Source: Deltaproteobacteria bacterium
GTDB taxonomy: Bacteria; Myxococcota_A; UBA9160; UBA4427
DNA: 64,000 nt
Direction of reading: 5' to 3'
NCBI GenBank assembly: GCA_029261835.1
Contig: JAJDAO010000072.1
Span: forward strand, 74,841-138,840
Under the pieces are notes generated by a model that searched no databases, was not told the origin of the DNA, and saw only the letters and a program-made list of their open reading frames with translations. Position 1 is the first letter of the stretch, and every line of letters starts with the position of its first letter. This document shows, piece after piece, positions 7,094 through 63,595 of this stretch. The position numbers were made by a program, and so were the translations under genes.

Positions 7094-7138
7094 GCTTTGC
7101 TCGCTTCCTCTGCGGCGACCTGCGGGCCGCTGCGCTGT

Positions 7139-8860: not shown

Positions 8861-8928
8861 GGCTCTTCCTCCAATCTCTCAACCGAACGCGTACGGACCG
8901 TGCGCAGGCGGAGCCGATAACAAAAGCA

Positions 8929-12281: not shown

Positions 12282-12415
12282 TGCGACACCTCGCCCGGGC
12301 GGATTCGCAACCCGCCCGAGCCCGAGAGTCGAACCTGCGCGACCGTGGGACCCGTCGGCCGACAAGGAGCGCCCCGAGCTGGAGCGAAACCGACCGACAC
12401 CGCGATGGTAGCTGG

Positions 12416-12427
12416 CGAAAGCTTTCG
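12416..12427. promoter_or_regulatory. perfect 12-bp palindrome CGAAAGCTTTCG in the divergent intergenic region (candidate MarR operator)
   Basis: Read directly; lies between the COG1233 operon start (12281) and the MarR gene, next to a locally AT-rich stretch. Confidence 0.3.
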
Positions 12428-12537
12428 GGCAAGCTAAATTGTTGTTCTGTGGCTTTTTTCGCTGCCTCCAGCTAGGCGTCTGGGGGATCGGCGCAACCGG
12501 CCCGATCGGTGCGGTGCGTGGTAATGGTTGCGTGTTA

Positions 12538-42076: not shown

Positions 42077-42261
42077 GCTCGATCCCCTTTCGAAACGCCA
42101 GCGTAGCAAGGCGCCCGCTCAGCACGCCGATGCAGCGCGGCTCGGCGCCCGCACGCTTTTCGCTTTACCCATCTTCGTAGAAGTGATAGGTAGTACATAT
42201 CACTTTTCCTTCCCGGATGCAGCGGGTACGAGGCAGTCCGGGCAACGGGCGGACGAGTCGG

Positions 42262-43926: not shown

Positions 43927-45557
43927 ACACGAGCTATGACGCGATCGTGCTCGGTGCCGGCCCCAACGGGCTCGCGGCCGCCGCATACTTGTCCGCGGCG
44001 GGGCAGCGCGTCGCTGTGATCGAGCAAGACGTCGAGACGGGTGGTGGGCTCGCCACGCAGGAGCTCAGCGGCTACCGCCTCAATCACCATGCCACCTATA
44101 TGCTGATGGCGGAGCTGCTACCGCCCTATCGCGATTTCGGGCTGCGCGAGCGCGGCGTCGACTTCATCCGGCCAAAGGTGCAGACGGCGTTTCTCTTCGA
44201 GCGACAGCAGTCTCTGCTTCTCTACTCGGATCCGGCGGGCAGCGAAGCCTCCGTCGAGGCGCTGTCGCCCGGTGACGGTGCCCGCTTTCGACGAATGTAC
44301 GATGAGTTCGAGCAGATGTGCGAGGCCTTTCTGCTGCCGGCCAGCTACGTCCCACCGCTGCCGCCGCTGGATCAGACGATCGCACTCGACCAGGCCGGTG
44401 AGCTCGGCCGGCGCATTTCGGAGATCTCGGAGATGTCGCCCCGCGAGGTAATCGCAAGCTACGAGTTCCGCGATCCACGTATCGAAGCCGCCTTTCTCTA
44501 CCTCGCGACGATGTTCGGGCTGGAGGCCTCCGAGGGCGGCATCGGCTTCCTCGTCCCGATCTACGTCTCGCGCATGATGAAGGCCGCCCTGGTGCGCGGC
44601 GGCTCTCACCAGCTCGCCTCTGCGTTGCGCCGCACGATCGAAGAACACGCTGGCGAGATTCTGACGTCGACAGCATTGCAGGAGATCCTCGTGCGCGAGG
44701 AGCGTGCCATCGGTGTTCGCGTCCTGTCTCGCGATGGAGCGGCGGAGCTGCATGCGAACACGGTGGTGAGCACGCTGAACCCCCAGCAGACCTTTCTCGA
44801 TCTGATGCCCCGCGATCGTGTCACGGCGCTACTGAGTGACACAGCGGCCGCGTGGGAGTGGGAGCCCACGAGCCTCTTTCTATTCAATCAGGGGATCGTC
44901 GGCGATCCGCCGATCTACGAGTGCTATCCCGACGATGCCAGCCGTGCTCTAATGGCCGTGATGGGCTATGAGACGCCAAACGACGTGATCGAGCACCAAG
45001 AGGCAGTCGCAGCCGGGGACCGCTCGCACCTGGCGGGGCACGGCTCGGTGCCGAGCCTCTTCGATCCCCTGATGGTGCCCGACCACGTGCCATTCGGGCC
45101 GCATCACGTGCTGCGCTGGGAGTGCTGCGCCCCCTACGAAGCGGACTGGAGCATCGAGGCCAGCCGGGAGTTCGCCGAGCAGCGCTACGATTTCTGGTGC
45201 CGCTACGCGCCCAACCTGAAGCAAGCGCAGTCGCGCGTGCGTATCACCTGGACGCCCCGCGACATCGAGACACACTTGCCCACGATGAGGCGCGGCTCGA
45301 TCAAGCACGGCGCCTACACCAGCCTGCAGATGGGCTACAACCGGCCGCTACCCGAGTGTTCGGGCTACAGGACGCCAATCGCCGGGCTGTACCTCGCCGG
45401 CTCGAGTGTCCATCCCGGCGGCATGGTCACGATGGGGGCCGGCTACAATGCGGCGCGCGTCGTGGCACGAGACATCGGCGCCGAGCTACTTCCCGAGCCC
45501 GAGATGGTGCGGCAAGCCCGCGAGCGAGGTTACCTGGAGAGCGAGGAGCAGGCGTAG
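43923..45557 (+). CDS. NAD(P)/FAD-dependent oxidoreductase, COG1233 family, paralogue 6
   Basis: GTG 43923 overlaps the upstream stop (GTGA). DAIVLGAGPNGLAAAAYLSAAGQRVAVIEQD; C-terminal YRTPIAGLYLAGSSVHPGG. Confidence 0.85.
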   Translation: MNTSYDAIVLGAGPNGLAAAAYLSAAGQRVAVIEQDVETGGGLATQELSGYRLNHHATYMLMAELLPPYRDFGLRERGVDFIRPKVQTAFLFERQQSLLLYSDPAGSEASVEALSPGDGARFRRMYDEFEQMCEAFLLPASYVPPLPPLDQTIALDQAGELGRRISEISEMSPREVIASYEFRDPRIEAAFLYLATMFGLEASEGGIGFLVPIYVSRMMKAALVRGGSHQLASALRRTIEEHAGEILTSTALQEILVREERAIGVRVLSRDGAAELHANTVVSTLNPQQTFLDLMPRDRVTALLSDTAAAWEWEPTSLFLFNQGIVGDPPIYECYPDDASRALMAVMGYETPNDVIEHQEAVAAGDRSHLAGHGSVPSLFDPLMVPDHVPFGPHHVLRWECCAPYEADWSIEASREFAEQRYDFWCRYAPNLKQAQSRVRITWTPRDIETHLPTMRRGSIKHGAYTSLQMGYNRPLPECSGYRTPIAGLYLAGSSVHPGGMVTMGAGYNAARVVARDIGAELLPEPEMVRQARERGYLESEEQA

Positions 45558-49568: not shown

Positions 49569-52448
49569 TCAGATCGAGGTGTCGCTGGCGGAGGTGTGCT
49601 TGCTGACCTCGACCCGCGTGCCGCGATCGCTGGCTCCCGGCGTTCCTACCGCGAGTCTCGGCTGCAGGTGAAAATAGTCGCCCGCGAGTTGAATCGGGTT
49701 GAAGGGGTTCGGAGTGATGGCCTTCTGCGACGTGTGACCCGCAAACTGGTACGGCTCCCAGGCGTGGTAGATGATCACCTGCCCCGGTCGCACCGAGGGT
49801 GAAACCCTGGCCTGCACTTCGAAGGAGCCGGCGTCGTTGTGGACGCGCACGATCTCGCCGTCCTCGATTCCGCGCGCACCGGCGTCTTCCGGCCCGATGG
49901 TCAGCAGCGGCCCACCGCGCTGCAGACGCAGGAGCGAGACGTCGTCACGCCACGCCGCATGAACCGACCAGCGTGTGTGGCCGCTCGTCATCTGCAGCGG
50001 ATGGTTCCCGCCGATGGGCGGCGGGTCCTTGTGAACGGGCAGCTCCTCCCCGAGCTCGAAGTAGAGATCGTGGTCGATATAGAACTGCATGCGACGCGTC
50101 AGTGTGGGCCAGGGGCGCTTCTTCTCGGTATGCCAGCTATTCGCCGTGATCGTCTGGTCGGGCTCGATATCGCTGGCATTCCCAAGATTCATGTAGCCGG
50201 AGCCCAGCCCGGTGTAGCGCTCGAAGCCCTTCTGCTTGAGCTCGTCCCACCCGATCCCGTCGAGATTGTTCGCCAGCGAGAGGGCCTCCTGCATCATCGC
50301 TTCGGAGTCGTTCTCCCCGAAGCGCTGCTGAAAAGTGAACTCTTCGTAGAAGTCGTCGATACGACGGCGCTCACCAGCACGGTCTTCGAACTCACTGACA
50401 CCGCGCGCTCGGGCCCGCTCCTGCAACGCCTTCGCGAAGCCACAGTGAAACGCCCAGTCGGATCTGGACTCGCCGAGGGGAGGGACGGCCTGGGTGGTGA
50501 CGTGCGCGAAGGGTGCGATCGGTGTCGTCCACGGGATCGTATTGACTTCGTAATAGGCGGCGATCGGCAACACGAAATCGCTGTGAAGCGCGGTAAAGTT
50601 CATGCGCCAATCGAGCGTGACGATCAGCTCCAGCTTGGGCCAGAGCTCTGCGAGGATCTTCGGATAGCCCCGGTTGCGGCGCAGATAGTTGCCACCGGCC
50701 TCGAAGAAGAGGCGTGGCCGGTTGCGCGCGGGCACCTGCCAGCCCTTCTCGAAAGCCTCCTCCAGGTATTCGTGCGACTCGCGCTGCTGGCTGGGATCCC
50801 ACTTCTTCGAACCGCCCAGATCGTCCGCGAGCCCCGCGTGCTCGTAGAGGAAGATTGCGCTCGAGGGTTGACCACCGCCGGCGTGCCTCCGGCGCATCAG
50901 TTCGTACATCACCATCTCCGGCGTGTACCCATCCCACTTCATCTCGAGCACATCCAGCGCGACGGGGAGTCCCTCGGCGACCAGACCCAACCGCGGCGGT
51001 AGCGAGCCCGATCCGACGATCAGGCCTTCATGGCCCGAGAGCCACAGGTTTGGAAAACCGTTGATCCCGCTGCCCTTCCGTCCGAACTGTCCCGCCAACG
51101 CAAAGGCGAGGAACTGCGCGCGCTCCATCTCGAGCCCGTGATAGTACTTGCCGAAATTGGACTGTGTGATGCACGTGGCAGCGCGCGCCCGCGCCATCGC
51201 TCGAGCCAGCTCGCGCACCGTCTGCGGCCGAACGCCGGTGACCTCTGCCGTCGCCTGCGGTGAGTAGGCCGCGAGTCGCTCGCGGAGCAGCTCGAAGACC
51301 GGCACCACCCGCACCTCTCCTCGCGGCGTGGCGACGCGATACTCCCCCTCCAACGCGGGGTCCAGCCCCTCGAGCGCGAGGCTCGTCTGCGAAACGGCCT
51401 GAATGCTGCCAGAAGTCCTGTCGTATACCCAGAAACGATCTTCCTCGCCGCCCTGCTCGAGGTCGCTGGAACGCAGGAAGCGGCGTGTATCGCGGCATAC
51501 GAGCAGAGGCAGGTCCGTCTGCTCCGCCACGAATTTCGCGTCGTAGATATTCTCTTCGACCATCACGTGAGCCAGGGACAATCCGAATGCGGCATCGCTG
51601 GCGATGTTCAACGGGATCCACTGGTCGGCGTGAATCGCCGAGGGGTTGTAGTCGGGCGTGATTGCGACCACCCGAGCACCGCGATAGCGGGCCTCGTTGA
51701 TGAAGTGCGCGTTCGGAATCTGTGTGTAGGTCGGGTTCCCGCCCCAGACCAGAATCAGGTCGGAGTAGAAGAGGTCGTCGGCCGAGCTGCAGAAGGAGAT
51801 CTTGCCGCACGTGACGGCGGCGCCCGGGTGGTGATCTCCGAACTCCGAGTCGAGGTCCAGCACGTGAGTATCGAGCAGCGCGTGGGTACGCTGAACACCG
51901 AGGTTGGAGCCTCCCGAGCCCTCGTCCCAGATGATCGACCCGGGGCCATCGCTCGCCAGAACGTCGATGCACCGGTCGGCGATCGTGCGCAGCGCATACT
52001 CCCACGAGACTCGCTTCCAGCTTCCGGCTCCACGCGGGCCGACGCGTTCGAGCGGGTAGCGCAGGCGACCGGCGTCATACATCCGTCCGCTGAAGGAGGC
52101 GCCCTTCTGACATCCGCGCGGATTGAAGTCCGGCACGTCGGCGTTCGTCTGTGGATAGCTGCCGGTCTGCTCCTCGCGCCAGACAACGCCTTCCTTCACA
52201 TAGACGTTCCAGTTGCAGCAGCGCTGGTACCAGCAGTTCCCGTGGTGGGTCCCCTTCGCGACGCGATCCCAGGTCCACTGGCGCCGGTAGACATCCCTGA
52301 AATCGTGATAGTGAATCTCGCGCACGATCGGCGCGACGGATCCAGATGAATCCTGTCGCGCTTCGCCGCAGCGGAGCTGGAGGAGTGAGAGGGCGAGCAG
52401 ACCGCCACCGCCCTGCAGAAAGCGCCGCCGCGTGATGGGGGCTCGCAC
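49569..52448 (-). CDS. Tat-exported molybdopterin-dependent oxidoreductase catalytic subunit, NarG/EbdA-like
   Basis: 959 aa. GTG start after GGAG. Twin-arginine signal MRAPITRRRFLQGGGGLLALSLL; HHGNCWYQRCC...GCQKG cluster motif; ITPDYNPSA. Confidence 0.9.
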   Translation of the reverse strand: MRAPITRRRFLQGGGGLLALSLLQLRCGEARQDSSGSVAPIVREIHYHDFRDVYRRQWTWDRVAKGTHHGNCWYQRCCNWNVYVKEGVVWREEQTGSYPQTNADVPDFNPRGCQKGASFSGRMYDAGRLRYPLERVGPRGAGSWKRVSWEYALRTIADRCIDVLASDGPGSIIWDEGSGGSNLGVQRTHALLDTHVLDLDSEFGDHHPGAAVTCGKISFCSSADDLFYSDLILVWGGNPTYTQIPNAHFINEARYRGARVVAITPDYNPSAIHADQWIPLNIASDAAFGLSLAHVMVEENIYDAKFVAEQTDLPLLVCRDTRRFLRSSDLEQGGEEDRFWVYDRTSGSIQAVSQTSLALEGLDPALEGEYRVATPRGEVRVVPVFELLRERLAAYSPQATAEVTGVRPQTVRELARAMARARAATCITQSNFGKYYHGLEMERAQFLAFALAGQFGRKGSGINGFPNLWLSGHEGLIVGSGSLPPRLGLVAEGLPVALDVLEMKWDGYTPEMVMYELMRRRHAGGGQPSSAIFLYEHAGLADDLGGSKKWDPSQQRESHEYLEEAFEKGWQVPARNRPRLFFEAGGNYLRRNRGYPKILAELWPKLELIVTLDWRMNFTALHSDFVLPIAAYYEVNTIPWTTPIAPFAHVTTQAVPPLGESRSDWAFHCGFAKALQERARARGVSEFEDRAGERRRIDDFYEEFTFQQRFGENDSEAMMQEALSLANNLDGIGWDELKQKGFERYTGLGSGYMNLGNASDIEPDQTITANSWHTEKKRPWPTLTRRMQFYIDHDLYFELGEELPVHKDPPPIGGNHPLQMTSGHTRWSVHAAWRDDVSLLRLQRGGPLLTIGPEDAGARGIEDGEIVRVHNDAGSFEVQARVSPSVRPGQVIIYHAWEPYQFAGHTSQKAITPNPFNPIQLAGDYFHLQPRLAVGTPGASDRGTRVEVSKHTSASDTSI

Positions 52449-52470: not shown

Positions 52471-52662
52471 TCAGGACGGCCTGGACAGAATGACGGCGCC
52501 GTTCTGGAAGTCGACCTCTCGAATCACGCCCTCGATCTCTTTCGTCTCTCCGAAGAGCGTCGCGATGCGAATCCGCTTGCCATCGCACTCGATCATCGCG
52601 ATGTCTTCGAGTACCAGCTCACGCTCGCCATTCTCGTCGAAGTACGCACTCGCCATGCACAT
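52471..52662 (-). CDS. cooT: CooT-family nickel-binding protein
   Basis: ORF 52471..52707 trimmed to ATG 52662 (GGGAGGA 7 nt upstream). The 63-aa product starts MCMASAYF... like R. rubrum CooT (MCMAK..., Cys2 is the Ni ligand), with a conserved TLFGE-type segment. Confidence 0.75.
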   Translation of the reverse strand: MCMASAYFDENGERELVLEDIAMIECDGKRIRIATLFGETKEIEGVIREVDFQNGAVILSRPS

Positions 52663-52663
52663 G

Positions 52664-52879
52664 TCACGGTCCTCCCAACTCGTCGAGGGCGCCCTGCAGA
52701 ACGTCATTCGCCCGACGCATCTGCTCCGCGGCCTCGAGAATGCGTTGTGAAACGCCGGCGTGTCCCGAAGCCTCGGCCTTCTCTGCCCATTTTCGGAACT
52801 CCTGCATATGCCCTTTGTTGTGCTCCATCCAGTGTTCGAGCACGATGGTCAACTTGCCCTCTTTGCTCTCCGTGGTCAT
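52664..52879 (-). CDS. CooJ-like small helical nickel-binding protein (no His tail)
   Basis: ORF 52664..52963 trimmed to ATG 52879 (GGGAG upstream). 71 aa. EHWMEHNKGHM matches the CooJ H-(W/F)-X2-H-X3-H Ni(II) site motif exactly. Stop lies 1 nt before the cooT ATG. Confidence 0.6.
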   Translation of the reverse strand: MTTESKEGKLTIVLEHWMEHNKGHMQEFRKWAEKAEASGHAGVSQRILEAAEQMRRANDVLQGALDELGGP

Positions 52880-52916: not shown

Positions 52917-53732
52917 CTAACTCGGATCGCGCGAGAGAATCCATCGATCGACGATCTCGCCAACGGCCACGATACCAGGTGAGTCCGGTGGCAGCTCAGT
53001 GAGGGGCTTCCCGATCAGATCGTGGTAGGCAACTCGCTCGTCCTGCGGAATGAATCCGACGACCTCCACCCCCACCGACTGCGCCGCCCGCTCGACCAGC
53101 TCTTCGTTTCCCTGAACGCGGTTCAGGACCAGACCGAGACGACCACACTCGATGACGTTCTCCTCTTCGACCATTCGCTTCACCAACGAAGCGGTCTGCA
53201 GACCGCGCGAGGTCGCATCACTGACGATGATCAGAGTGTCGACCCGTCGCATCACCTGGCGATTGATCTGCTCGAGCCCCGCCTCCCCGTCGATCAAGAT
53301 CGTGTCGAAGTCTTGCGAAAGCGCCTCGATGGTTCCGCGCAACAGGTCGTTGACCGGGCAGTAGCAACCCTTCGTCTCGGTTCTCCCCATCGCGAGCAGG
53401 GCGTAGTCCTCCTGCTCGCTCAGCGCCTCGAGAACCATGTAGTCGAGCATGTCGATCAGTTGAGTCTTTTGCTCTCGATTGGCTCGTCTCGACCTGGCGA
53501 TGATCTCCTCGCGAACTTCTCCCATCGTCCGCTTCACCTCGACATCGAGCGCCAGCGGCAACCCCTTGGCCGGGTCCGCGTCGATCAGCAGCAGCCGTCC
53601 CGTGCGGTCCCGGTCCAGCAGTACCTTGCTCATCATCGCGGTGAAGGCAGTCTTTCCGACGCCACCCTTGCCACAGACGGCGATCAACCTCGTCTGCTGC
53701 CCACTCGTGCCCACACTGGCCGCCTCCACCAC
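52917..53732 (-). CDS. cooC: CooC/AcsF-type nickel-insertion ATPase (MinD/ParA class)
   Basis: 271 aa. Deviant Walker A CGKGGVGKT; metal-bridging C-x-C motif TKGCYCPVN; GGAGGGG SD before GTG 53732. Confidence 0.8.
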   Translation of the reverse strand: MVEAASVGTSGQQTRLIAVCGKGGVGKTAFTAMMSKVLLDRDRTGRLLLIDADPAKGLPLALDVEVKRTMGEVREEIIARSRRANREQKTQLIDMLDYMVLEALSEQEDYALLAMGRTETKGCYCPVNDLLRGTIEALSQDFDTILIDGEAGLEQINRQVMRRVDTLIIVSDATSRGLQTASLVKRMVEEENVIECGRLGLVLNRVQGNEELVERAAQSVGVEVVGFIPQDERVAYHDLIGKPLTELPPDSPGIVAVGEIVDRWILSRDPS

Positions 53733-53734
53733 GC

Positions 53735-54586
53735 CTACCCCTCCGCCCTCTTCGCCTTCTTCGCCGACTGGGCCGCCCGTTTCGCCTGTCTGCGCAGCAG
53801 AACGACCTCGCGGATGTCATCGCAATCCTGCTGCTCGCTGCAGGATCCACAGTCGTGCGAGACGCTGCAGGCGGCGGGATCGAAGCCCTTGGCGCGCCAC
53901 GCCTCTTTCGCCAGCTCCGCTCCGATCAAGCTGGCCTCTTCGGCGATCTCTCCCAGCCGCTCCACGTCCTCGCGTCCCGAGGTGACGAAGAGCACCTGCA
54001 TCGTCCGAATCTTGGGCAGCTCGCCCTTGAAGATCGCGATCAGTGCTGCGCCGAGCGCCTCGAAGTCGAATCCCTTGCCGGCGATCTCCCGGCCAACGCG
54101 ACTCCAGAGCCGACCCGGCGCGCGACGGATCATGTACCCCTCGATCTGGTTCGCGACGAACTGCTTGAGTTCGAGCGCCGACTGGTCCCCTTTGTCGAGC
54201 GCTTCGCCGCCCACCATCACCACCTGGCCGAATGGCAGGCTGGCGCCCTCGGACTCCTGCAAGCCGGGGCCGACGAGCGTGATTCGGCCGTCCTCGATCA
54301 GCTCGGACCGCCGGGTCCAGAGCAGCAGCGGGCAGGAACCCGCGTCGGGGCTGCCCAGCTCCGCGAAGACGTCCTTTCGCAGGATCAGTCCCGAGTGGGC
54401 TCCGGGCCCGACCCGCATCGGCAACTTCTCGAGCAGCGCATCCGCCTCACCCCGTGCATGCCAAACGCGAGTGGGACGACCCGCCGCGCCCAGTTCTTCG
54501 ACGAGGCGAGCTACCTCTGCGATGTGGAGGTCGAAGCTCTGGCCGGGCGGGGCGTCGTCCACATCGCGACTCGCGGGCTCACTCAT
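53735..54586 (-). CDS. acetyl-CoA synthase (AcsB/CdhC) middle-domain-like protein with C-terminal 4-Cys motif
   Basis: 283 aa. MRVGPGAHSGLILRKDVFAELG...IEDGRITLVGPGLQESEGASLPFGQVV...QIEGYMIRRAPGRLWSRVGREIAGKGFDFEALGAALIAIFKGELPKIRTMQVLFVTSG aligns by eye with Moorella AcsB residues about 300-490, recalled from memory. Ends with CSVSHDCGSCSEQQDC. Confidence 0.6.
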   Translation of the reverse strand: MSEPASRDVDDAPPGQSFDLHIAEVARLVEELGAAGRPTRVWHARGEADALLEKLPMRVGPGAHSGLILRKDVFAELGSPDAGSCPLLLWTRRSELIEDGRITLVGPGLQESEGASLPFGQVVMVGGEALDKGDQSALELKQFVANQIEGYMIRRAPGRLWSRVGREIAGKGFDFEALGAALIAIFKGELPKIRTMQVLFVTSGREDVERLGEIAEEASLIGAELAKEAWRAKGFDPAACSVSHDCGSCSEQQDCDDIREVVLLRRQAKRAAQSAKKAKRAEG

Positions 54587-54616: not shown

Positions 54617-55405
54617 CTAGAGCTTCGCATCCAGCCTCTCCCGAGCGAGGAGGGCCGCCCCGAGCGCGCCCGCGAGCTGGGGATCGCGCGGCAGCCTCTT
54701 CACTTCGACCTCCAGCGACTCTCCAATCGCCTTCACCAAGCCGTCATTCTTCGAGCAGCCGCCGGTGAGCACGACGTCTTCGATCACGCCCACGCGGCGC
54801 GCCATTCCCTTCAGCCGCTTGGCGACCGAGAGGTTCACTCCGGCAATGATGTTGCGAAAGTCGGTGCCCTCATTGACGAGGGTCACGACCTCGGACTCCG
54901 CGAACACGCTGCACTGGTTGGAGATCACGCAAGGCTTCTCTCCCTGGTTCTCCAAGGCCGAGATCCCGTCGAGTCCGCAGCCGAGCCCACGTGAGATGCC
55001 TTCGAAGAACCGCCCGGTGCCCGCAGCGCAGCGATCATTCATGACGAACTCGAGCACGCCGCCCTTGGGCGAGACGGAGATCACCTTGCAGTCCTGTCCG
55101 CCGATATCGATCACAGTCCGCACGCTGGGCACCATCCAGTGGGCACCCTTCGCATGGCAAGCGATCTCCGACACGTTCTCGTTGGCAAACGGGATGTCGA
55201 GTCGGCCGTATCCGGTACTCACGGTGTTCTCGATGTGGTCGACGGAGGGAACACCCGCCTCCGCCAACGCCGCTTCGATCACCCGATTTGCCATCTTCAA
55301 GGGGTGTGCCGTCGACGGTTCTATGTGCGTGCCAATCACGTCTCCGTCTTTCATGACGACGGCCTTGCCAGTAGCCGATCCGAGATCGATGCCCGCGACG
55401 ATCAT
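54617..55405 (-). CDS. acyl-CoA dehydratase activase (HgdC/BcrAD_BadFG ATPase)
   Basis: 262 aa. GIDLGSATGKAVV, DIGGQDCKVI, NDRCAAGTGRFFE, LTGGCSKN. Confidence 0.9.
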   Translation of the reverse strand: MIVAGIDLGSATGKAVVMKDGDVIGTHIEPSTAHPLKMANRVIEAALAEAGVPSVDHIENTVSTGYGRLDIPFANENVSEIACHAKGAHWMVPSVRTVIDIGGQDCKVISVSPKGGVLEFVMNDRCAAGTGRFFEGISRGLGCGLDGISALENQGEKPCVISNQCSVFAESEVVTLVNEGTDFRNIIAGVNLSVAKRLKGMARRVGVIEDVVLTGGCSKNDGLVKAIGESLEVEVKRLPRDPQLAGALGAALLARERLDAKL

Positions 55406-55444: not shown

Positions 55445-56743
55445 CTAGCCAACACCAATACCGGCGAAGAAACGTGCGAACTTGTCCTTGATCTGATCCG
55501 GCGTCGTGTACCGACGATCGAAGATGTCCATGCGGATGTCCATGAATGGGACACCCAGCTCACGACAGGCCTCTCTCATGATACCGAAGGTGCCCTGAGT
55601 CTCCTTGTGGCCCATATGGCCGGGCCAGACGACGACATCGATCTGGTAGTCCTTGACGATCCGCACCAGATCGTCGACGAAGCCCTCGGCCGGTCCCATC
55701 GCCTGTCTGACCATCGGGGTGTCGAAGAGGCCTCGCTTGGCCAGGCCTCGCCAGATTTCCTGCTCGTCCGAGGTGTCGATCGTCGTATAGGGATGGTTCC
55801 CGAACATGTCCATCACGACGACCGCGCCGAACTCCTCTTCGAGCCACGGCATGAACTCGAAGATGAAGCCGCTCGGCATGATGTCGAACCAGAACAGCCT
55901 GATCTTCTCCTTCTCTACGGCGCCGATCCCCTTCTCGACCTTCTCCTCGGTCAGGTCGACGAGATTCTGGAACCACTCGGTTCCATCCTTGTGCCCCACC
56001 TTGAACATCTGCGATACCGCAAAGCACATCGGGCCTCCGAGGCCATAGCCGTGGGGGCACGGAACCGCGCGTCGGAGCTCGTTGTACTCCTGCCACAGGA
56101 GATACTGACGGTCGCTCTCCTCTACGACCTCTCGCAGGCGATCCATGTCCAGCTTGGCGCCCGTCTCCTTCTCGAGAAAGGCCGTCATCTTCTTCAGCTC
56201 GTTGGCGAAGTAATCAATGCTGCGATCGTCGTTGAAGTAGGGCGGATCGGGGCAGAACATTGGAATGTGCCCCCAGGTCTTGCTGTGCTTGATTACCTGG
56301 TGGAGCATCGGCATGCCGTCACAGGGGAAGATGAAGCCGATCACCGCGCTCGGAACTGGCACCAGATCTTTCTCGACGTAGTAGATGCTGGATCGAATCG
56401 CGGTGCAGAGATCGGTCCCCAGTCCCATCGCGCCCGTCTCGTCGATCTGATCGGAGAGCCCCTCGACGCTGACAGCCATGAAGGGAGCCTCGTAGAGCAT
56501 CAGCCATGGGATGTCCATGGCCTCGGTGATCTCCGGGGCCGTGCAGTAGTTGTTGTTGACGAACGGCCGGCCTTCCTCGTGGGCGGTCAGGATCGTGTCT
56601 CGAGCCTCGCTCACGAACTTGGCCAGCCTGCCCGCGACACGGATCTCGGGATTCTCACTCTGCTGAGAGAGCGCGTAGAAGCCGGCGTAGCGCTCACGAT
56701 CCTCTTTATAGGACCGGATGCCCCGATGTTCTTCAGTCGTCAT
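55445..56743 (-). CDS. 2-hydroxyacyl-CoA dehydratase / benzoyl-CoA reductase D-component family subunit
   Basis: 432 aa. Pattern typical of HgdA/B-BcrB/C proteins (NNNYCTAPEI..., LGTDLCTAIRS, IFPCDGM). Confidence 0.8.
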   Translation of the reverse strand: MTTEEHRGIRSYKEDRERYAGFYALSQQSENPEIRVAGRLAKFVSEARDTILTAHEEGRPFVNNNYCTAPEITEAMDIPWLMLYEAPFMAVSVEGLSDQIDETGAMGLGTDLCTAIRSSIYYVEKDLVPVPSAVIGFIFPCDGMPMLHQVIKHSKTWGHIPMFCPDPPYFNDDRSIDYFANELKKMTAFLEKETGAKLDMDRLREVVEESDRQYLLWQEYNELRRAVPCPHGYGLGGPMCFAVSQMFKVGHKDGTEWFQNLVDLTEEKVEKGIGAVEKEKIRLFWFDIMPSGFIFEFMPWLEEEFGAVVVMDMFGNHPYTTIDTSDEQEIWRGLAKRGLFDTPMVRQAMGPAEGFVDDLVRIVKDYQIDVVVWPGHMGHKETQGTFGIMREACRELGVPFMDIRMDIFDRRYTTPDQIKDKFARFFAGIGVG

Positions 56744-56746
56744 GGC

Positions 56747-57892
56747 TCATTTCCCCATACTTTCGATGAATGCCTGGACGCGAGTCTTCAGCTGACCTGT
56801 TGCGCTGGTGAGATACTCGCGATCGATTCGCAGAAAGGGAATCCCCTCGTCTGCAAGATCCATGTCCAGCATGTAGTTTTCCACGTCCCACTGATCACAG
56901 AACATCATCTTCTCGCCCAAGACGCCGTCGCAGTTGAAATCACGACACATCTTGACCGTGAACTGGGTGCGTTTCTCCTGCGTGTCGAGGAGCCGCGGAC
57001 AACTCGGCCGGTCCGCCAGGTAGTAGCGAGCCAGCGCCTCGAGAGGATCCTCCGCCTCTTCGTCGATGTCCTGCCACATCAGCCGAGCTCCAAAGCAGGT
57101 CCCGTCGGTAACGACGAGCCCCCCCACCGACTCGACCGCACGCACCCAGGCGGGATCGTCCAAGATACCACCCGTAATCATCAGTCTGGCGCGGTAATCC
57201 CCCTCGCCCTGCACGCCGTCGAGCTCCGTCAGAAGTCGGCTGAGCAGCGCGTTGTACTCCTCTTTCGGCATCGCCGTTCCGGCAACCATGATCACGAGGG
57301 CCTGCTCGCCGTTGATCGGCGGTCGCTCCTGCTTGCGAAGCGCATACAGGGCGCGCTGGAGCCCCCGCCCCTGATTCGCGAGCCGAATCGCCGCCCTGAC
57401 ATCGTCATCCTTGATCTCGACGGCGAAGCTCTCGGCCAGCGCATCGCGCAGCATCCTGCACTCCTGGGTGTACCACTGGATCTGGTCCGGTCCCGACTGG
57501 CGAGGCAGGCTGATGAAGTGAAGAAAGCCGGTGTCGACGTTTCGCTTCCAATTATCGTAGAGCCTGCGAATGTGGTCGCAGCTGTTGATGCCCACGACAC
57601 CATCGAGGAATTCGAACTCTCCCTCCAGCGCCAGGTTGAGACAATGTCGAGGAAAGGAGCAATTCAGATTGGTGAAGTAGGCGTCCGCCAGATCGGTGCC
57701 CGTGCTGCCGGTGGCGCGCATCCTGAAGGGCAACAAGCCCGCCGCCATGAAGAGCTCTTCCGGCACCATCGAGCAGAGGAAACCGATCACGCGGCCGCCG
57801 TCATCCCGCCAGCGCTGCAGCGCTGGATTGACCAGCGTCGAAGCGGCCTCGGCCATGGTCGCAAAGGCTTCCGAGCTGGCAGTAGGATCCAT
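56747..57892 (-). CDS. 2-hydroxyacyl-CoA dehydratase / benzoyl-CoA reductase D-component family subunit
   Basis: ORF 56747..57940 trimmed to ATG 57892 (GGAGGAG 5 nt upstream). RVIGFLCSMVPEELFMAAGLLPFR, NLNCSFPRHC, INSCDHIRR. Confidence 0.8.
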   Translation of the reverse strand: MDPTASSEAFATMAEAASTLVNPALQRWRDDGGRVIGFLCSMVPEELFMAAGLLPFRMRATGSTGTDLADAYFTNLNCSFPRHCLNLALEGEFEFLDGVVGINSCDHIRRLYDNWKRNVDTGFLHFISLPRQSGPDQIQWYTQECRMLRDALAESFAVEIKDDDVRAAIRLANQGRGLQRALYALRKQERPPINGEQALVIMVAGTAMPKEEYNALLSRLLTELDGVQGEGDYRARLMITGGILDDPAWVRAVESVGGLVVTDGTCFGARLMWQDIDEEAEDPLEALARYYLADRPSCPRLLDTQEKRTQFTVKMCRDFNCDGVLGEKMMFCDQWDVENYMLDMDLADEGIPFLRIDREYLTSATGQLKTRVQAFIESMGK

Positions 57893-58093
57893 CGACGCTC
57901 CTCCGTCTGTGGGTTGCGGTGAGCTGGTCGCCCGGCTCACGACGTCTGCTGAGCCTCCATCCTCTCACGATACGCGGACCCGGTTCGGCGAACATCGTCC
58001 ATATTGACTATCCGGGGCCTTGCGCCGCAAGCTGCGAGCGGCGGACGTAGCGCCCCGCCTTGCGAGTGCCGGCCCAGTGATACAATCCCCGGC

Positions 58094-59224
58094 GTGGGCG
58101 CTCAGCGTAACACCACGGATTTCGAAGAGATTCTCGGCCTCGTCTACCAGGGCCCGATCGAGCCCGTCCCCTGGCACTCGTTTCTCGATCGATTTCGCGA
58201 CGTAATGGAGGCCATGACGGTTGGGCTCATCCTGCGCCCACCGAGCGAGGGCGACCGCGGGCTCCTCTTGAACGAGAGCGACATCAGCCCGGCCTGGAGA
58301 ACCGCCTACCGCGATCGCTACTTCGCACTCGATCCGTTCGTCGACCTGCCGCTCGGAGAGCCGGTGACGCTGCAGGAGTTGGTTCCGGTCGAGGAGCTGC
58401 TGCGAAGCGAATTCTACACCCGCTACATGGAGCCGATGGGCGCGCTCTATGCGCTGGCGGTGGACGTCCGGGAGCCGGGCGGACTCGAGGCCCGGCTGCG
58501 CGCGGCTCGACCGAAGGGATCGCGAGATTTCGGCGAGGAGGAAAAGGCTGTCTTCAGACGGCTCGTCCCCCATCTCGAACGCGCACTACAGATCCACGGC
58601 AAGCTGTGCCAGACGGAGTCCGAACGCGATCTCTATGCCAACGCGGTCGATCAGTTCTCGGTCGGTACGATTCTGCTGGACTCATCGGGCCACGTCTTGA
58701 AGATGAACCGAATCGCCGAGAGCCTGCTGCACGAGCGGGACGGCCTGGTGCTGCACGAGGGACGACTCCGAACCGAAGACCGCGAGAGCTCGCAGCAGCT
58801 CCAGCGGTTGATCGACAGCGCGGCGGCGGCGCAGCGCACTCGACGCCCCAGTGTGGTGGCGGCTCTGCGCGTCGAGCGACCATCGGGAAAGCGGCACATT
58901 GCGCTGCTGCTGCGACCGGTACCACTCGGGCGTTGGTCGGATGAACGCACCTGTCCCGCGCTGGCGATCTTCGTCGGACGGCCTGAGGAACGGCCCGAGG
59001 TCGCGCCGGAGGTCCTCGAGAACCTGTTCAGCCTGACCCCGGCCGAAGCGGCGGTGGCGAGTCTGCTCGCCGAAGGCCTGAGCGTGGAGGAGAGCGCCGC
59101 GGCGCTGGGAATCTCGGTCCATACCGCCCGCGCCCACCTGCGCGCGATCTTCTCCAAGACAGGCGTCTCCCGCCAGACAGAGCTCGTCCTGCTGATCCTG
59201 GGGAGTGCGGCCAAGCTGGGCTGA
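58094..59224 (+). CDS. LuxR-family transcriptional regulator (N-terminal sensor domain, C-terminal HTH)
   Basis: C-terminal LTPAEAAVASLLAEGLSVEESAAALGISVHTARAHLRAIFSKTGVSRQTELV. Start uncertain: GTG 58094 is preferred over TTG 58004, whose 30 extra residues are low-complexity. Confidence 0.75.
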   Translation: MGAQRNTTDFEEILGLVYQGPIEPVPWHSFLDRFRDVMEAMTVGLILRPPSEGDRGLLLNESDISPAWRTAYRDRYFALDPFVDLPLGEPVTLQELVPVEELLRSEFYTRYMEPMGALYALAVDVREPGGLEARLRAARPKGSRDFGEEEKAVFRRLVPHLERALQIHGKLCQTESERDLYANAVDQFSVGTILLDSSGHVLKMNRIAESLLHERDGLVLHEGRLRTEDRESSQQLQRLIDSAAAAQRTRRPSVVAALRVERPSGKRHIALLLRPVPLGRWSDERTCPALAIFVGRPEERPEVAPEVLENLFSLTPAEAAVASLLAEGLSVEESAAALGISVHTARAHLRAIFSKTGVSRQTELVLLILGSAAKLG

Positions 59225-59330: not shown

Positions 59331-60122
59331 ATGAGCGCAGCAGCGAAGGATCCCGTCCTGGTCGAACGAAGTGGAGCCGTGACCACGCTGAGGCTCAACG
59401 ACCCGCCCCACAATCCGCTCGGCATGGCGCTGATCGATCGTCTCGAAGAGGTCGTCTCGCAGCTGGCCGATGATGCCAGCGTGCGCGCCATCGTAATCAC
59501 GGGCGCTGGTGAGCGAAGCTTCTCTGTCGGCGCTGATATCCGCGAGTTCGGAAAGGCGGCCAGTGAGGTCGGAATCCAGGCCTTCATCCAGCAACGCCTG
59601 CGACTCATTGCGCGCATCGAGCAGCTCGCCAAGCCAGTCGTGTGCGCCATTCGGGGCGCATGCGTCGGCGGAGGCCTCGAGCTGGCGCTCGGCTGTCACT
59701 TTCGCATCGCGGCGCGGGGAGCGCGCATCGGCCTGCCGGAGATCGAGCTGGGCATCATCCCGGCCTGGGGAGGCACACAGCGCCTCACGCGCGCGGTGGG
59801 ACGTGCGCACGCGCTCGACATCATTCTCCGAGCCAAGAAGATCACTGCCGACGAAGCGCTGCGCATTGGACTGGTGCACGAGATCTGTCAGCCCGACGAC
59901 CTGCTGGAGCACGCCCAGGACCTGGCCCGCGAACTCGCGGAGAAGGCGCCCATCGCTGTCGCGGGCATTCTCGAAGCTGTGATTCGCGGCGGAGCGCTGC
60001 CGCTCGAAGAGGGACTCGAAATCGAGTATCAGGCGATGGAACGCGTCAGCAGCACGAAGGACCTGCGTGAGGGCATCGTCGCCTTCTTCGAGAAGCGAAA
60101 GCCCGTCTTCCGCGGCGAATGA
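59331..60122 (+). CDS. enoyl-CoA hydratase/isomerase (crotonase) family protein
   Basis: 263 aa. AIVITGAGERSFSVGADIREF; GGGLELALGCHFRIA; GAGGAGAGGAAG SD upstream. Confidence 0.9.
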   Translation: MSAAAKDPVLVERSGAVTTLRLNDPPHNPLGMALIDRLEEVVSQLADDASVRAIVITGAGERSFSVGADIREFGKAASEVGIQAFIQQRLRLIARIEQLAKPVVCAIRGACVGGGLELALGCHFRIAARGARIGLPEIELGIIPAWGGTQRLTRAVGRAHALDIILRAKKITADEALRIGLVHEICQPDDLLEHAQDLARELAEKAPIAVAGILEAVIRGGALPLEEGLEIEYQAMERVSSTKDLREGIVAFFEKRKPVFRGE

Positions 60123-60147: not shown

Positions 60148-60241
60148 CCCCGCTTGGCGGACGAGCCCACCGGGCGACGGGAGGGGTTTATGAGATAGCT
60201 TCTCGTGTCTCAGGTGAGTTCTGCGAGAACTGGAGGTGCTG

Positions 60242-60883
60242 ATGGCCGTCGAGCTGTCTGATCTGATCCTCGAGCTGCGAAGGGAGGAGGCCTCGGCCGA
60301 GGTGCTTCGCCGCGTGCGGGAAGGTGACGATCCGCTGGTGATCCTCGCCGAATGCCGCCGGGGCATGGCTGCGGTCGGTGACCGCTTCCAGCAAGGCGAC
60401 TACTACCTCGCCGAGTTGATGCTCTCCGGCGAGCTGCTGCGAAGTCTGGTCGATCTCCTCGTCCCGCTGCTGAAGGGAAGAGACCGGGGTGTGGCGTCGG
60501 GCACGGTTGTTCTCGCAACACCAAAGGGTGATATCCACGACCTCGGCAAGGACGTGTTCGCGACCATGCTCGAAGCACACGGCTTCACTGTGCATGATCT
60601 CGGTGTCGATGTCGCACCTGAGCGAATCGTGCAAGAAGTCGAGCGAGTGGCGCCCGACTTCGTCGGCCTCTCTGCGCTGATCACGACTTCCTTCGAGAGC
60701 ATGAAGCAGACCGCTTCACTGCTCGAGCAGGCCGGGCTGCGGCAGCGTCTCAAGCTCATGGTCGGAGGCGGCGTGACGGGCCCATCCGTCAGGCGGCACA
60801 TCAACGCTGACTTCCAGACCCTGGACGCCATGGAGGGCGTCTCGTACTGCATCAATGTCATGAATCCAACGCCGACAAAGTAA
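60242..60883 (+). CDS. cobalamin (B12)-binding corrinoid protein, MtbC/MttC-like
   Basis: ATG 60242, 5 nt after GGAGG. N-terminal helical cap domain, then a Rossmann-like domain with the D-x-H-x2-G motif (GDIHDLGKD) and LSALITT. Confidence 0.8.
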   Translation: MAVELSDLILELRREEASAEVLRRVREGDDPLVILAECRRGMAAVGDRFQQGDYYLAELMLSGELLRSLVDLLVPLLKGRDRGVASGTVVLATPKGDIHDLGKDVFATMLEAHGFTVHDLGVDVAPERIVQEVERVAPDFVGLSALITTSFESMKQTASLLEQAGLRQRLKLMVGGGVTGPSVRRHINADFQTLDAMEGVSYCINVMNPTPTK

Positions 60884-60904: not shown

Positions 60905-62032
60905 TTGTCCATCCTCTTCGAGCCGACTCGGATCGGCCGACTGGAGATCAGGAACCGCTTCATTCGCTCTGCCACGTACTACGGCCTGGCGGATGTGGCG
61001 GGGCGCGTCGGCGACGAGAGTGTCGAGCTGATGCGCACGCTCTCGAGCAACGAGGTCGGGCTCATCGTCACCGGCTACGCGTTCGTGTCGCAGACTGGGC
61101 GCTGCTTCGCCGACATGAATGGCATCGACCGCGACGATCACATCCCGGGCTATCGCAGGATGACGGACGCCGTACACGCCTGCGGCGGCCACATCGCAAT
61201 GCAGATTGCGCACGGAGGAGCGGCCGCGACTCAGTTGCGCCGCGACGGCAAGGAACCTCTCGTCGTCTCCCTGACCGACCGGCAGAGAGAGCGGGGTGAG
61301 GGGGTACGCGAGATGTCGAACGAGGACATCGAGTCGATCGTCGCCGACTTTGGGCGGGCAGCAGGCCGGGTCGAGGAGGCCGGCTTCGATGCGGTCCAGA
61401 TCCATGGCGCCCACGGCTACCTCGTTTCGCAGTTTCTGAGCTCGGCCCGCAACCAGCGCAGCGATCGCTGGGGAGGGAGCACGGAGAAGCGAATGCGTTT
61501 CGTGCTCGAGGTGGCGCGCTCGATCCGACAGCATGTCAGCGATGACTTCCCGCTGACGATCAAGCTGGGATGTCGTGACTACCTGGACGAGAGCGACGGG
61601 CTGACGATCGGTGAGGGGACGCGTGTCGCGGCGGCGCTCGAGCGCGAGGGTGTCTGCTTCATCGAGGTGAGTCATGGAGACACAGGGCGTGCCTTTCGCA
61701 AGCTGAGCGGAGGCAAGAAGACGGCTCCGGTCCGTGAAGCCTACCTGCTGCCCGATGCCAAGGCGGTGCGCGGCTCGACCTCGGTCGCGCTCGGGCTCGT
61801 CGGCGGTCTGCGCAGCCTGCCCGTGATGGAGGCGTTGGTGGCATCGGGCACGGTGGACTGCGTCTCCCTGTCGCGCCCGCTCATCCGCGAGCCCGATCTC
61901 GTCAAGCGCTGGCGCGAGGGCGAGACGAAATCCGCCGAGTGCGTGAGCTGCTGGGGCTGCCTGAAGACGGACGGGGACGGAAGAAGCAGCATACACTGCC
62001 GTCAGCCCGCCCCCGTACCCGCGCCCCTATAG
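60905..62032 (+). CDS. Old-Yellow-Enzyme-family NADH:flavin oxidoreductase with C-terminal Cys cluster
   Basis: 375 aa. TTG start after GGAGGAG. LEIRNRFIRSAT, QIAHGG, VQIHGAHGYLVSQFLS. C-terminal CVSCWGCL...C resembles the 4Fe-4S motif of FadH/TMADH-type enzymes. Confidence 0.85.
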   Translation: MSILFEPTRIGRLEIRNRFIRSATYYGLADVAGRVGDESVELMRTLSSNEVGLIVTGYAFVSQTGRCFADMNGIDRDDHIPGYRRMTDAVHACGGHIAMQIAHGGAAATQLRRDGKEPLVVSLTDRQRERGEGVREMSNEDIESIVADFGRAAGRVEEAGFDAVQIHGAHGYLVSQFLSSARNQRSDRWGGSTEKRMRFVLEVARSIRQHVSDDFPLTIKLGCRDYLDESDGLTIGEGTRVAAALEREGVCFIEVSHGDTGRAFRKLSGGKKTAPVREAYLLPDAKAVRGSTSVALGLVGGLRSLPVMEALVASGTVDCVSLSRPLIREPDLVKRWREGETKSAECVSCWGCLKTDGDGRSSIHCRQPAPVPAPL

Positions 62033-63436
62033 GTACCCGAGCTCCTCGAGCTCGCGGCGGCGTTCCTCATCGAGATGGAAACGCGAGATCGACGGCGCCT
62101 GCCGCGGACGGGCGCGCAGCTCACGCAAGCGCGTTCCGAGTTCGCGAGCTCTTTCTGCAGCAACGGGTCGCACGGCATCTTCGCGCGGGTCGAGCGCAAG
62201 GTCGAAGAAGCGCGGCGCTCTCGGCGCTGTCTTGCCCGCGCGAAGCTTCCAGGAGCCGGCGCGCAGCGAGACTTCGTGCAGGGTCTCACTCATGACATCG
62301 CTCTCTGCCTCCGCGAGCAGGTTCCGGCCGTCGACGTCTCTCTGCTCCGGCAGACCGAGGATCGCCAGGACGGTGGGAAAGATATCGACAGTCGATACCG
62401 GATTCGCAACGACTGCTCCGGGGGTGCAGCCCGGGTAGTAGACCAGGAGTGGAACATGCACCTGATCCTGCGTCAGCTCGTTGCCATGGCTGAAGTAGAA
62501 GCCATTGTCTCCCGCCAGCGCCTCACCGTGATCGGACGAGAGAACGACAGCGGAATCATCGAGCAGGCCATCGCGCTCAAGCCGCACCAGTAGACGACCG
62601 AGCTCGCCGTCGAGATCGCGAACCTCGGCTGCGTAGCGGGCCAGGTAGTCCCGCCCGTCGCGCGAGCGGCTCGCGATGGGCTTCCACTGATAGTGCGGGA
62701 TCCCGCCACGACCTGAATTGTCTCCCTTGGCGAGCAGCTCGAGTTCACGTGGTGCGTCGAACTGCTCGCTGGGAAACAACGCCAGAACATCCTGCGGCGG
62801 AACATAGGGGCCGTGCGGCTCCATGAAGTGCAGCCAGAGAAAGAAGCGACGACTCGTCGGACGCTCATCGAGCCAGCCGAGCGCGCGGTGCACCAGCTCG
62901 GAGGCGCGGGCCTTCGGCTCGCCACTGGCTCTCTCGACCAGCTCGTAGTGGTCGAAGCCGGCCTCAAAGCCGAATCCCGCCCTCAATAGTGGATTGGCCA
63001 CGACCGCGGCGTTGACGAACCCGGCTTCGCGCAGCTTCGAAGCGAGAGTCGGCACGGTCGCGGGAAGCACGTGCTGGTTGGAGACGACGCCAGAGCGGTA
63101 GGGAAAGAGGCCTGTCAGGATCCCCGCGACGCCCGGAGAAGTCTGCGTGCCGACGGAGGACGCATCGGCGAAGAGAATCATCCGGCTGGCCCAGGCCGTG
63201 AGCTCGGGCGTGAGCGCCTGCCCGGCGCGTTGGGCCGACAGGTGGTCGCCTCTCCACGTATCCACTGTGATGAGAATGACGTTCTTCGGCGGCGAATGCC
63301 TCTGCGCTCCGCCACAGGCGGCGACGAAGAGTGCACCGATGAGCAAGACGAGCAGCCCCGCACAGCGCAGCTTCGAAACGGGCACGAGCTCGGAGAGCTC
63401 GTTGCGCGAGAGCCGATTCAGCGACACGCTGCTCAT
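62027..63436 (-). CDS. sulfatase-like hydrolase/transferase lipoprotein (alkaline-phosphatase superfamily, no C-x-P-x-R motif)
   Basis: ORF 62027..63505 trimmed to ATG 63436. Lipobox FVAAC; ILITVDTWRGDH; GTQTSPGVAGILTG in place of the fGly motif; SSDHGE. Confidence 0.8.
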   Translation of the reverse strand: MSSVSLNRLSRNELSELVPVSKLRCAGLLVLLIGALFVAACGGAQRHSPPKNVILITVDTWRGDHLSAQRAGQALTPELTAWASRMILFADASSVGTQTSPGVAGILTGLFPYRSGVVSNQHVLPATVPTLASKLREAGFVNAAVVANPLLRAGFGFEAGFDHYELVERASGEPKARASELVHRALGWLDERPTSRRFFLWLHFMEPHGPYVPPQDVLALFPSEQFDAPRELELLAKGDNSGRGGIPHYQWKPIASRSRDGRDYLARYAAEVRDLDGELGRLLVRLERDGLLDDSAVVLSSDHGEALAGDNGFYFSHGNELTQDQVHVPLLVYYPGCTPGAVVANPVSTVDIFPTVLAILGLPEQRDVDGRNLLAEAESDVMSETLHEVSLRAGSWKLRAGKTAPRAPRFFDLALDPREDAVRPVAAERARELGTRLRELRARPRQAPSISRFHLDEERRRELEELGYL

Positions 63437-63496
63437 CACGAACTCTTCCATCATGAACTCATCCATCATGAACTCATCCATCACGAACTCATCCAT
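63437..63496. repeat. four tandem copies of a 15-bp unit (minus-strand ATGGAKGAGTTCRTG)
   Basis: Read directly. In frame with the sulfatase-like gene, it would encode (M)DEF(V/M) x4 and supplies many in-frame ATG/GTG codons upstream of the signal peptide. Confidence 0.8.
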
Positions 63497-63595
63497 CACG
63501 AGCACATCCGTCGAGAGTCCATCCGACCCGCGGCGAGTCTACTGCAGGTCGACTCTCGGCGCCCAATGGCCGAACGATGAATTCGCAAAGGCGGG

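Follow-up and report, generated by a model that had tools for sequence, protein, structure and literature searches.

A stand-alone homologue of the acetyl-CoA synthase A2 domain, encoded with a CooC-type ATPase in benzoyl-CoA-reductase/dehydratase-type operons

Introduction

The A2 domain of acetyl-CoA synthase (ACS) is the coenzyme A (CoA)-binding site of that enzyme (PMC12289521). In the complex of Clostridium autoethanogenum ACS with acetyl-CoA, the adenine is stacked on Trp405 and the diphosphate faces a patch of Lys and Arg residues; Arg383 and His386 are close to the A-cluster, and the acetyl group is hydrogen-bonded to Gly399 (bioRxiv 10.1101/2024.08.05.606187). Here we describe a 283-residue protein, called CdhC-dom in what follows, that resembles this one domain of ACS and stands alone. 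It is encoded on the minus strand, at 53735..54586, of a 64,000-nucleotide stretch of DNA (the window) from a Deltaproteobacteria bacterium (contig JAJDAO010000072.1, positions 74,841 to 138,840).

ACS itself (AcsB/CdhC, EC 2.3.1.169) has an A1 (prismane) domain, an A3 domain, a Cys-Gly-Cys motif, a full cubane motif (CxxC-x8-C-x9-C) and a catalytic His, whereas CdhC-dom has none of these, the His being replaced by Gln. In the AcsF-ACS and CooC-carbon monoxide dehydrogenase (CODH) pairs, a CooC-family ATPase with a deviant Walker A motif and a Cys-x-Cys pair stands beside an ACS-related protein, as it does at the present locus. CdhC-dom differs from these pairs in lacking a Ni-Ni site, in having the nickel chaperone CooT nearby in one clade only, and in that the enzyme of its operon comes from an unrelated family. 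The upstream genes are homologous to BzdNOPQ/MbdONQP, to HadBC with HadI and to the double-cubane cluster protein (DCCP). This benzoyl-CoA-reductase/dehydratase family performs some of the most demanding anaerobic reductions and dehydrations, and its inventory of [4Fe-4S]-OH2 and [8Fe-9S] clusters was resolved only recently. We know of no ACS-domain protein or CooC-type ATPase in the characterised benzoyl-CoA reductases, 2-hydroxyacyl-CoA dehydratases or DCCP. A SIMIBI-class nucleoside triphosphatase (NTPase) encoded next to a small Cys-rich partner is also found in HypA-HypB and UreE-UreG; in HypA, two CxxC pairs serve to bind Zn and the Ni site is at the N-terminus. These systems are analogous to the CdhC-dom pair but have no sequence or fold relation to it.

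Searches of the full-text literature gave no paper on an A2-only ACS homologue, and none that reports benzoyl-CoA-reductase/dehydratase operons with a CooC-type ATPase. ACS clades that lack the prismane domain have been described from these phyla in a 2026 preprint; unlike CdhC-dom, they are full ACS enzymes linked to CODH. An isoprene-reductase paper that features both CooC and double-cubane clusters, and the OPB41 paper, proved unrelated to the module described here. Both the domain and the type of chaperone treated here are familiar; the architecture and the system in which they occur have not been described before.

Results

The CdhC family of Pfam (PF03598) matches CdhC-dom with E 6.7e-18 and 65.5 bits against a cut-off of 24, residues 56-203 corresponding to positions 2-151 of the 155 in the profile. 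In phmmer searches against PDB, the protein aligns with residues 319-483 of Moorella ACS (1oao/3git, E about 5e-12) and with residues 3-165 of archaeal CdhC (9c0s_E, E 1e-19). The computed alignment runs from DLPINFGPAFEGESIRKGD to VQVTIFTD-EAKV, which is the Moorella region that a preliminary description, made from the letters alone, had named when it proposed a homologue of the ACS middle domain. For an AlphaFold2 model built with 35 homologues as input (mean predicted local distance difference test score, pLDDT, 87), all 23 Foldseek matches in PDB at E ≤ 1e-3 are ACS/CdhC chains. The best of them is 1oao_C (E 2.4e-13, root-mean-square deviation (rmsd) 2.6 Å, 182 columns), and the first match beyond such chains comes at E 0.4. 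The proposed homology is thus borne out by Pfam, phmmer and Foldseek alike. Identity to ACS A2 domains is 27-31%, with an rmsd of 2.0-2.6 Å over about 170-180 residues. The shared motifs are ELG, DG.I..GP, LP.G, EG, W.R(V/I)S and KGF, together with the adenine-stacking Trp.

Outside this region the likeness ends. The full-length ACS models TIGR00316, NF003379, NF040764 and NF007078 give CdhC-dom 58-82 bits against cut-offs of 356-809 and align to residues 53-217 only. The preliminary description had stated that the terminal ACS domains and Cys-Gly-Cys were missing, and this was correct: neither A1 nor A3 is present by these models, the protein stopping 28 residues past its Cys loop, and Cys-Gly-Cys is absent from the 283-residue sequence. 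In sequence and fold, CdhC-dom is therefore significantly homologous to the A2 domain of ACS and to no other part of it. The A2-like domain itself occupies residues 54-217 (53936..54427) and includes EGYM149-152 and W161/R163. Unlike ACS, the protein has its own helix-strand extension at the N-terminus and a Cx3-5Cx2Cx5C loop near the C-terminus. The extension comprises residues 1-53 (54428..54586), the ACS alignment starting at residue 54. It is modelled as a helix (19-34) and a strand (39-43) that have no counterpart in archaeal CdhC, with pLDDT 97-98 at residues 21-60. Behind the Cys motif (53822..53869), the last residues, 256-283, form with the stop codon the segment 53735..53821, a mildly basic stretch that the model folds into a helix spanning 252-282.

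The CoA-site residues of C. autoethanogenum ACS follow the spacing R-x2-H-x12-G-x5-W, which has one fit in the Moorella sequence (R405/H408/G421/W427). The stacking residue Trp405 would thus correspond to Moorella W427 and to W161 of CdhC-dom (codon 54104-54106), a mapping that comes from alignment and spacing and not from structure superposition. Moorella Trp418, which aligns with M152, was also considered as the CoA-site Trp; since the spacing fits the former set only, the relevant position in CdhC-dom is W161 and not M152. W161 is present in all of the 84 homologues derived from gene loci and in 48 of the 49 sequences of an alignment chosen to be deliberately broad, and R163, aligned with Moorella R429, is conserved to the same degree. 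A basic residue (R/K154) is likewise kept in 84/84, K/R171 is also kept, and Y151 and M152 are conserved in 84/84 as well. The counterpart of the ACS His, Q142, is Gln in 74 of the 84 sequences. Together, these positions suggest that CdhC-dom keeps the nucleotide-binding face of A2 but not its acetyl-transfer residues.

The Cys motif of the window's protein reads C240-SVSHD-C246-GS-C249-SEQQD-C255. None of the four Cys varies in 35 close or in 84 locus-derived homologues; in the broad alignment C240 is kept in 24/49, and C246, C249 and C255 in every sequence. Among 247 family sequences of at least 225 residues, 218 have Cx3-5Cx2Cx5C, and the remainder keep only Cx2Cx5C. The four-Cys conservation that the preliminary description had set as a test of its proposal is thus found in the closer subfamily (84/84), but C240 is not invariant across the whole family. 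The same description had placed the motif where ACS carries its cubane Cys. When the family profile is aligned with Methanosarcina thermophila CdhC, up to residue 195, the first family Cys fall on 'GCTLCQSF', which we take to be the first A-cluster cysteines. This lends the placement weak support: the posterior confidence of the alignment there is low, and a common origin of the Cys loop and the A-cluster site is therefore a lead only. A Lys/Ala-rich tail is present, as described, but it is a weak family trait, with a median net charge of +2 (range -9 to +9) and positive values in 69% of members. A strongly basic tail was accordingly rejected as a family trait, the charge being weak and variable, and so was C85 as a further metal ligand (conserved in only 52/84).

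One family member from a metagenome (P0203, 308 residues) keeps the loop as DCxxCx5C and continues into a C-terminal 2x[4Fe-4S] ferredoxin domain. This fusion hints at a role in an Fe-S electron path.

A word-indexed search with CdhC-dom returned 217 relatives. A hidden Markov model (HMM) scan of 1.84 billion cluster representatives gave 731 matches at E ≤ 1e-3 and 166 at E ≤ 1e-30; these counts are of clusters at 50% identity, so that the family comprises at least 166 clusters. Lengths in the best 150 of the 731 representatives range from 117 to 310 residues with no decay, and the relatives are therefore stand-alone proteins rather than ACS fragments. This uniformity speaks for purifying selection on the family. 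A scan of one genome per GTDB species with the CdhC-dom alignment yielded 80 loci, all in metagenome-assembled genomes (MAGs) and mostly in Dehalococcoidia or other Chloroflexota. The other loci are labelled Myxococcales, Binatia, Desulfobacterota or 'Deltaproteobacteria', Spirochaetales, Elusimicrobia, Ignavibacteria, Bacteroidota, Verrucomicrobiota, Syntrophorhabdaceae and Geobacter sp.; Actinomycetota/Geothermincolia MAGs carry a more distant subfamily. A plasmid search returned nothing but a true ACS. At 37 positions conservation reaches at least 95% in the 84 locus-derived homologues, and in the broad alignment G78, G106, G150, C246, C249 and C255 alone are invariant.

Where the source records give a name, they call these relatives either 'CO dehydrogenase/acetyl-CoA synthase beta subunit' (Joint Genome Institute, JGI) or 'hypothetical protein'. 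CdhC-dom is not an acetyl-CoA synthase. It has no A3 domain, A-cluster ligands, Cys-Gly-Cys, catalytic His or CODH context, and for this reason the ACS annotation is unwarranted and should not be used. Such labels can inflate Wood-Ljungdahl inferences in Chloroflexota and other MAGs.

The gene order on the minus strand of the window is HGDa, HGDb, activase, CdhC-dom, CooC-type ATPase, a His-rich DUF8180-like open reading frame (ORF), CooT and a molybdoenzyme resembling the alpha subunit of type II dimethyl sulfoxide (DMSO) reductases. Neighbourhoods were counted by tblastn of the window proteins against fetched loci, with duplicates and the window's own contig excluded. A CooC-type gene lies at most 600 nt downstream of CdhC-dom in 70 of the 79 loci with enough downstream sequence. 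Where enough upstream sequence was available (69 loci), HGDa and HGDb precede CdhC-dom on the same strand in 63 and the activase is present in 61. This arrangement spans Chloroflexota, Myxococcota-like organisms, Binatia, Desulfobacterota, Actinomycetota and other groups. Loci of the distant three-Cys subfamily show the same layout, with 2-3 HGD-D genes and two BcrAD genes, and the CooC-type gene adjoins CdhC-dom in two of the three examined. The CdhC-dom/CooC-type pair is found alone, without HGD neighbours, in two full-flank loci, including the complete Dehalococcoidia genome L001. No CODH gene and no ACS/corrinoid iron-sulfur protein (CoFeSP) gene set was found in the CdhC-dom loci with gene calls or among the window ORFs scanned against Pfam; ACS differs from CdhC-dom in this respect too. 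At one locus, L008, a corrinoid methyltransferase/RACo cluster of no relation to ACS, with a weak match to CdhD, lies about 5 kb away on the other strand; it is not an ACS set. Because linkage to the CooC-type and HGD genes is conserved and no CODH/ACS gene is nearby, CdhC-dom is one of the two genes of a conserved module that accompanies benzoyl-CoA-reductase/2-hydroxyacyl-CoA-dehydratase-type enzymes. The strand, the pairing with a CooC-type ATPase, the HGD operon and the missing CODH/ACS link all go beyond the preliminary description. It had pointed to nickel chaperones as neighbours, and a CooC-type ATPase and CooT do lie in the window, but CooT, the main source of that impression, occurs in only 8 of 88 loci.

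Some loci hold further genes. In three of Dehalococcoidia type (L001, L008 and L009), a gene with domains of a nucleoside-diphosphate-forming acyl-CoA synthetase (CoA_binding_2 / Succ_CoA_lig) is encoded just downstream of the CooC-type gene, adjoining it in L008 and L009 and lying one gene further in L001. The gene set on the opposite strand at L033 2200-6244 and L055 1071-5195 has no CdhC-dom or CooC-type genes of its own.

The CooC/AcsF-type P-loop ATPase (271 residues; 52917..53732, minus strand) begins 2 nt past the CdhC-dom stop codon and has the Walker A motif CGKGGVGKT and the Cys-x-Cys pair C123/C125. Its best PDB match is CooC1 (3kje, E 1e-10), in which CYC aligns with its GCYCP. Both Cys are 100% conserved in 74 orthologues, and the Walker A motif is conserved as well. 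The equivalent Cys pair of CooC1 is a binding site for Zn or Ni where the two subunits of the dimer meet, and its Walker A motif, GKGGVGKTT, is of the deviant kind (PMC6006190).

Upstream of CdhC-dom, the BcrAD/BadFG-type ATP-dependent activase (262 residues; 54617..55405, minus strand) matches PF01869 with E 3e-57 and TIGR00241 with 252 bits against a cut-off of 125, and its cluster cysteines C126 and C165 are 100% conserved. HGDb (432 residues; 55445..56743, minus strand) is an HGD-D subunit (PF06050, E 7e-51) similar to BzdO, HadB and DCCP, with PDB alignments to DCCP and BzdO. It retains the active-site cluster Cys C113 and C141, both at 100%, but at the third ligand position, where BzdO has Cys380, it usually has His, in the motif WPGHMGHKD. 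In 70 orthologues H376 is conserved at 95%, H379 at 91% and C393 at 97%, and the canonical Cys persists in a few divergent loci. The His suggests an unusual active-site cluster or metal site in HGDb. The other HGD-D subunit, HGDa (56747..57940, minus strand), is nearest to BzdN (8s02_B, E 5.8e-46). Its listed GTG start is probably 16 codons early; a homologous gene call in L005 points to 57892, which gives 381 residues. Residues C56/94/121/282/314/348 of HGDa, conserved at 95-100%, align with Cys36/73/100/263/293/327 of BzdN, the ligands of its double-cubane [8Fe-9S] cluster (PMC11971306). With PF06050 twice, PF01869 once and the cluster Cys conserved, the operon is of the benzoyl-CoA-reductase/dehydratase type.

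Downstream of the ATPase gene follows the His-rich DUF8180-like ORF (71 residues, motif HWMEHNKGH; 52664..52879, minus strand), which has 64% identity in tblastn to an L004 homologue with PF26551. CooT (52471..52662, minus strand; PF10133, E 2.2e-16 over ORF residues 16-74) lies 1 nt past it, and its likely true start, 52662, gives a protein that begins Met-Cys2. Cys2 is the Ni-binding residue of CooT (PMC6006190). Both genes are confined to a Myxococcales/delta-like subset of loci.

Discussion

We tentatively propose, at rather less than even confidence, that CdhC-dom is an accessory CoA-binding metalloprotein, paired with the CooC-type ATPase, which serves the HGD-type enzyme as a redox/CoA-handling subunit. 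The A2-type domain would most likely still bind the nucleotide end of CoA or of an acyl-CoA, and the C-terminal loop of three or four Cys would most likely hold an Fe-S cluster, probably [4Fe-4S]. The match to ACS A2 and to nothing else, the conserved W161 and R163, the Cys motif, the P0203 fusion and the conserved linkage to the ATPase and HGD genes speak for this proposal. So does the Cys spacing, which is near that of the [4Fe-4S] loop of endonuclease III and MutY, Cys-X6-Cys-X2-Cys-X5-Cys (PMC11138216). These glycosylases have a fold unrelated to CdhC-dom, no helix-hairpin-helix glycosylase being among its Foldseek matches, and the first Cys is dispensable in half of the CdhC-dom family. 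By analogy with the action of AcsF on ACS, the CooC-type ATPase may load or maintain this metal site. CdhC-dom and the ATPase would then serve the upstream ATP-dependent enzyme, made of HGDa with its predicted double-cubane site, HGDb and the activase, and the likely service is that of an auxiliary redox and/or CoA-handling subunit. The physical contacts among these proteins, and the direction in which metal or electrons would flow, we infer from the comparison with known systems.

Several observations weigh against this proposal. Arg383 and His386, the ACS residues proposed to act on the CoA thiol or acetyl group, are lost in CdhC-dom, where L140 and Q142 take their places. The Cys loop is modelled at pLDDT 49-55 only, as is to be expected when the metal of such a site is missing from the model. 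Since half of the wider family has only three Cys, a cubane is no better a fit than a Zn or Ni site or a ligand that a partner protein shares; from sequence, these three are indistinguishable. No Pfam Fe-S family matches CdhC-dom (the sole match at E ≤ 0.01 is PF03598), nor does any Fer4 HMM at the same threshold, and the CxxCxxCxxxCP motif of bacterial ferredoxins is likewise absent. Nine of the 79 loci with enough downstream sequence have no CooC-type gene within 600 nt of CdhC-dom, and the members come from MAGs or metagenomes throughout. Finally, BzdNO produced in E. coli is reported to acquire its clusters unaided by helper proteins of this kind, and a maturation role is therefore not obviously needed.

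Alternatively, CdhC-dom may be a maturation adaptor similar to HypA/HypB, its Cys loop holding a structural Zn or a transient Ni and its A2-like domain docking the ATPase onto HGDa/HGDb; the metal, Ni or another, would end in the enzyme, for example in the His-containing site of HGDb. SIMIBI-class metallochaperone NTPases usually act with a small adaptor protein, and here the Cys-x-Cys metal site of the ATPase is intact and its gene tightly coupled to that of CdhC-dom. The replacement of the third cluster Cys by His (WPGHMGHKD) in 91% of HGDb orthologues would provide a destination for the metal. In the window's clade CooT and the His-rich DUF8180 protein follow the pair, and the pair can sit apart from HGD genes, as a trans-acting factor would. 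However, docking needs no strict conservation of the CoA-site Trp and Arg, the pair also occurs beside HGDb variants with the canonical Cys (L081-L088, L090), CooT is encoded in so few of the loci (8/88), and the ferredoxin-domain fusion points to electron transfer. We consider this explanation possible, although doubtful.

A second alternative is a miniature A-cluster-like site, in which a [4Fe-4S] cluster of the Cys loop would be bridged to a Ni inserted by the ATPase and would act on a bound CoA thioester. The motif falls at the linear position of the first CdhC A-cluster cysteines in the low-confidence alignment, the partner is of CooC/AcsF type, and the CoA surface of A2 appears to be retained; CooT is encoded in the window. 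AcsF is reported to be the Ni insertase of ACS. Yet CdhC-dom has neither Cys-Gly-Cys nor any other candidate set of Ni ligands, and a cubane would by itself use up all three or four Cys. Gln stands in place of the catalytic ACS His, and most loci are without CooT. Such a site is quite unlikely. If any Ni-dependent reading is allowed, whether CdhC-dom itself carries a small [4Fe-4S]-Ni centre that works on a bound CoA thioester or the pair passes Ni to the His-substituted HGDb cluster, the case becomes slightly better but is still improbable. Were it true, nickel-dependent enzymes would gain a new class, one that is widespread among uncultured anaerobes such as Dehalococcoidia, Binatia, Desulfobacterota and Actinomycetota.

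It is also conceivable that CdhC-dom senses redox state or CoA, its Fe-S loop and basic helix binding nucleic acid or a regulator and tuning expression of the operon. The Cys spacing resembles the cluster loop of the DNA glycosylases named above, the C-terminal helix is mildly basic, and a divergent LuxR-type gene is encoded at 58004-59224. However, no DNA-binding domain or fold match was found with Pfam or Foldseek, the charge of the tail is weak and variable, and the gene is inside a structural-gene operon, translationally coupled to the ATPase. We regard regulation as very unlikely. That CdhC-dom covers just one ACS domain might suggest a decayed fragment without function, but this is scarcely credible and effectively refuted by conservation, given hundreds of uniform-length homologues across many phyla, strongly conserved positions throughout 84 sequences, conserved synteny, and an N-terminal extension and Cys motif specific to the family.

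Both alternatives offered by the preliminary description, a new metallocluster site or a scaffold/adaptor, remain viable. For a large and uncultured branch of the benzoyl-CoA-reductase/dehydratase family, the two-gene addition suggests a maturation step that has gone unrecognised, an additional subunit for the handling of electrons or CoA, or else a novel metal site. From an evolutionary standpoint, the CoA-binding domain of ACS exists and is reused outside carbon fixation.

Additional Observations

Next to CooT, the window encodes on the minus strand one of two paralogous alpha subunits of the type II DMSO-reductase/ethylbenzene-dehydrogenase kind (49569-52448); the other is at 39272-42109, also on the minus strand. 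A twin-arginine signal is present on at least the first of them. No beta or gamma subunit gene was identified beside 49569-52448, and the gene downstream is a MerR regulator. This arrangement of the alpha subunits recurs in L004 and L037.

Six or more FAD-dependent oxidoreductases, paralogous and of amine-oxidase/phytoene-desaturase type, are encoded at 5405-12749 on the minus strand and at 42217-45557 on the plus strand. Genes nearby specify an old-yellow-enzyme homologue (60905-62032), an enoyl-CoA hydratase (59331-60122), a B12-binding protein (60236-60883), an acyl-CoA ligase (23180-24952) and a resistance-nodulation-division (RND) pump, along with at least one sulfatase. The region has the look of an island for the catabolism of a substrate of isoprenoid or steroid kind. 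The LuxR-type regulator at 58004-59224 is divergently encoded. The ORF at 62027-63505 on the minus strand, a putative sulfatase, opens with an odd fourfold MDEF(V/M) repeat at about 63430-63505, and this repeat may lie upstream of the real start codon.

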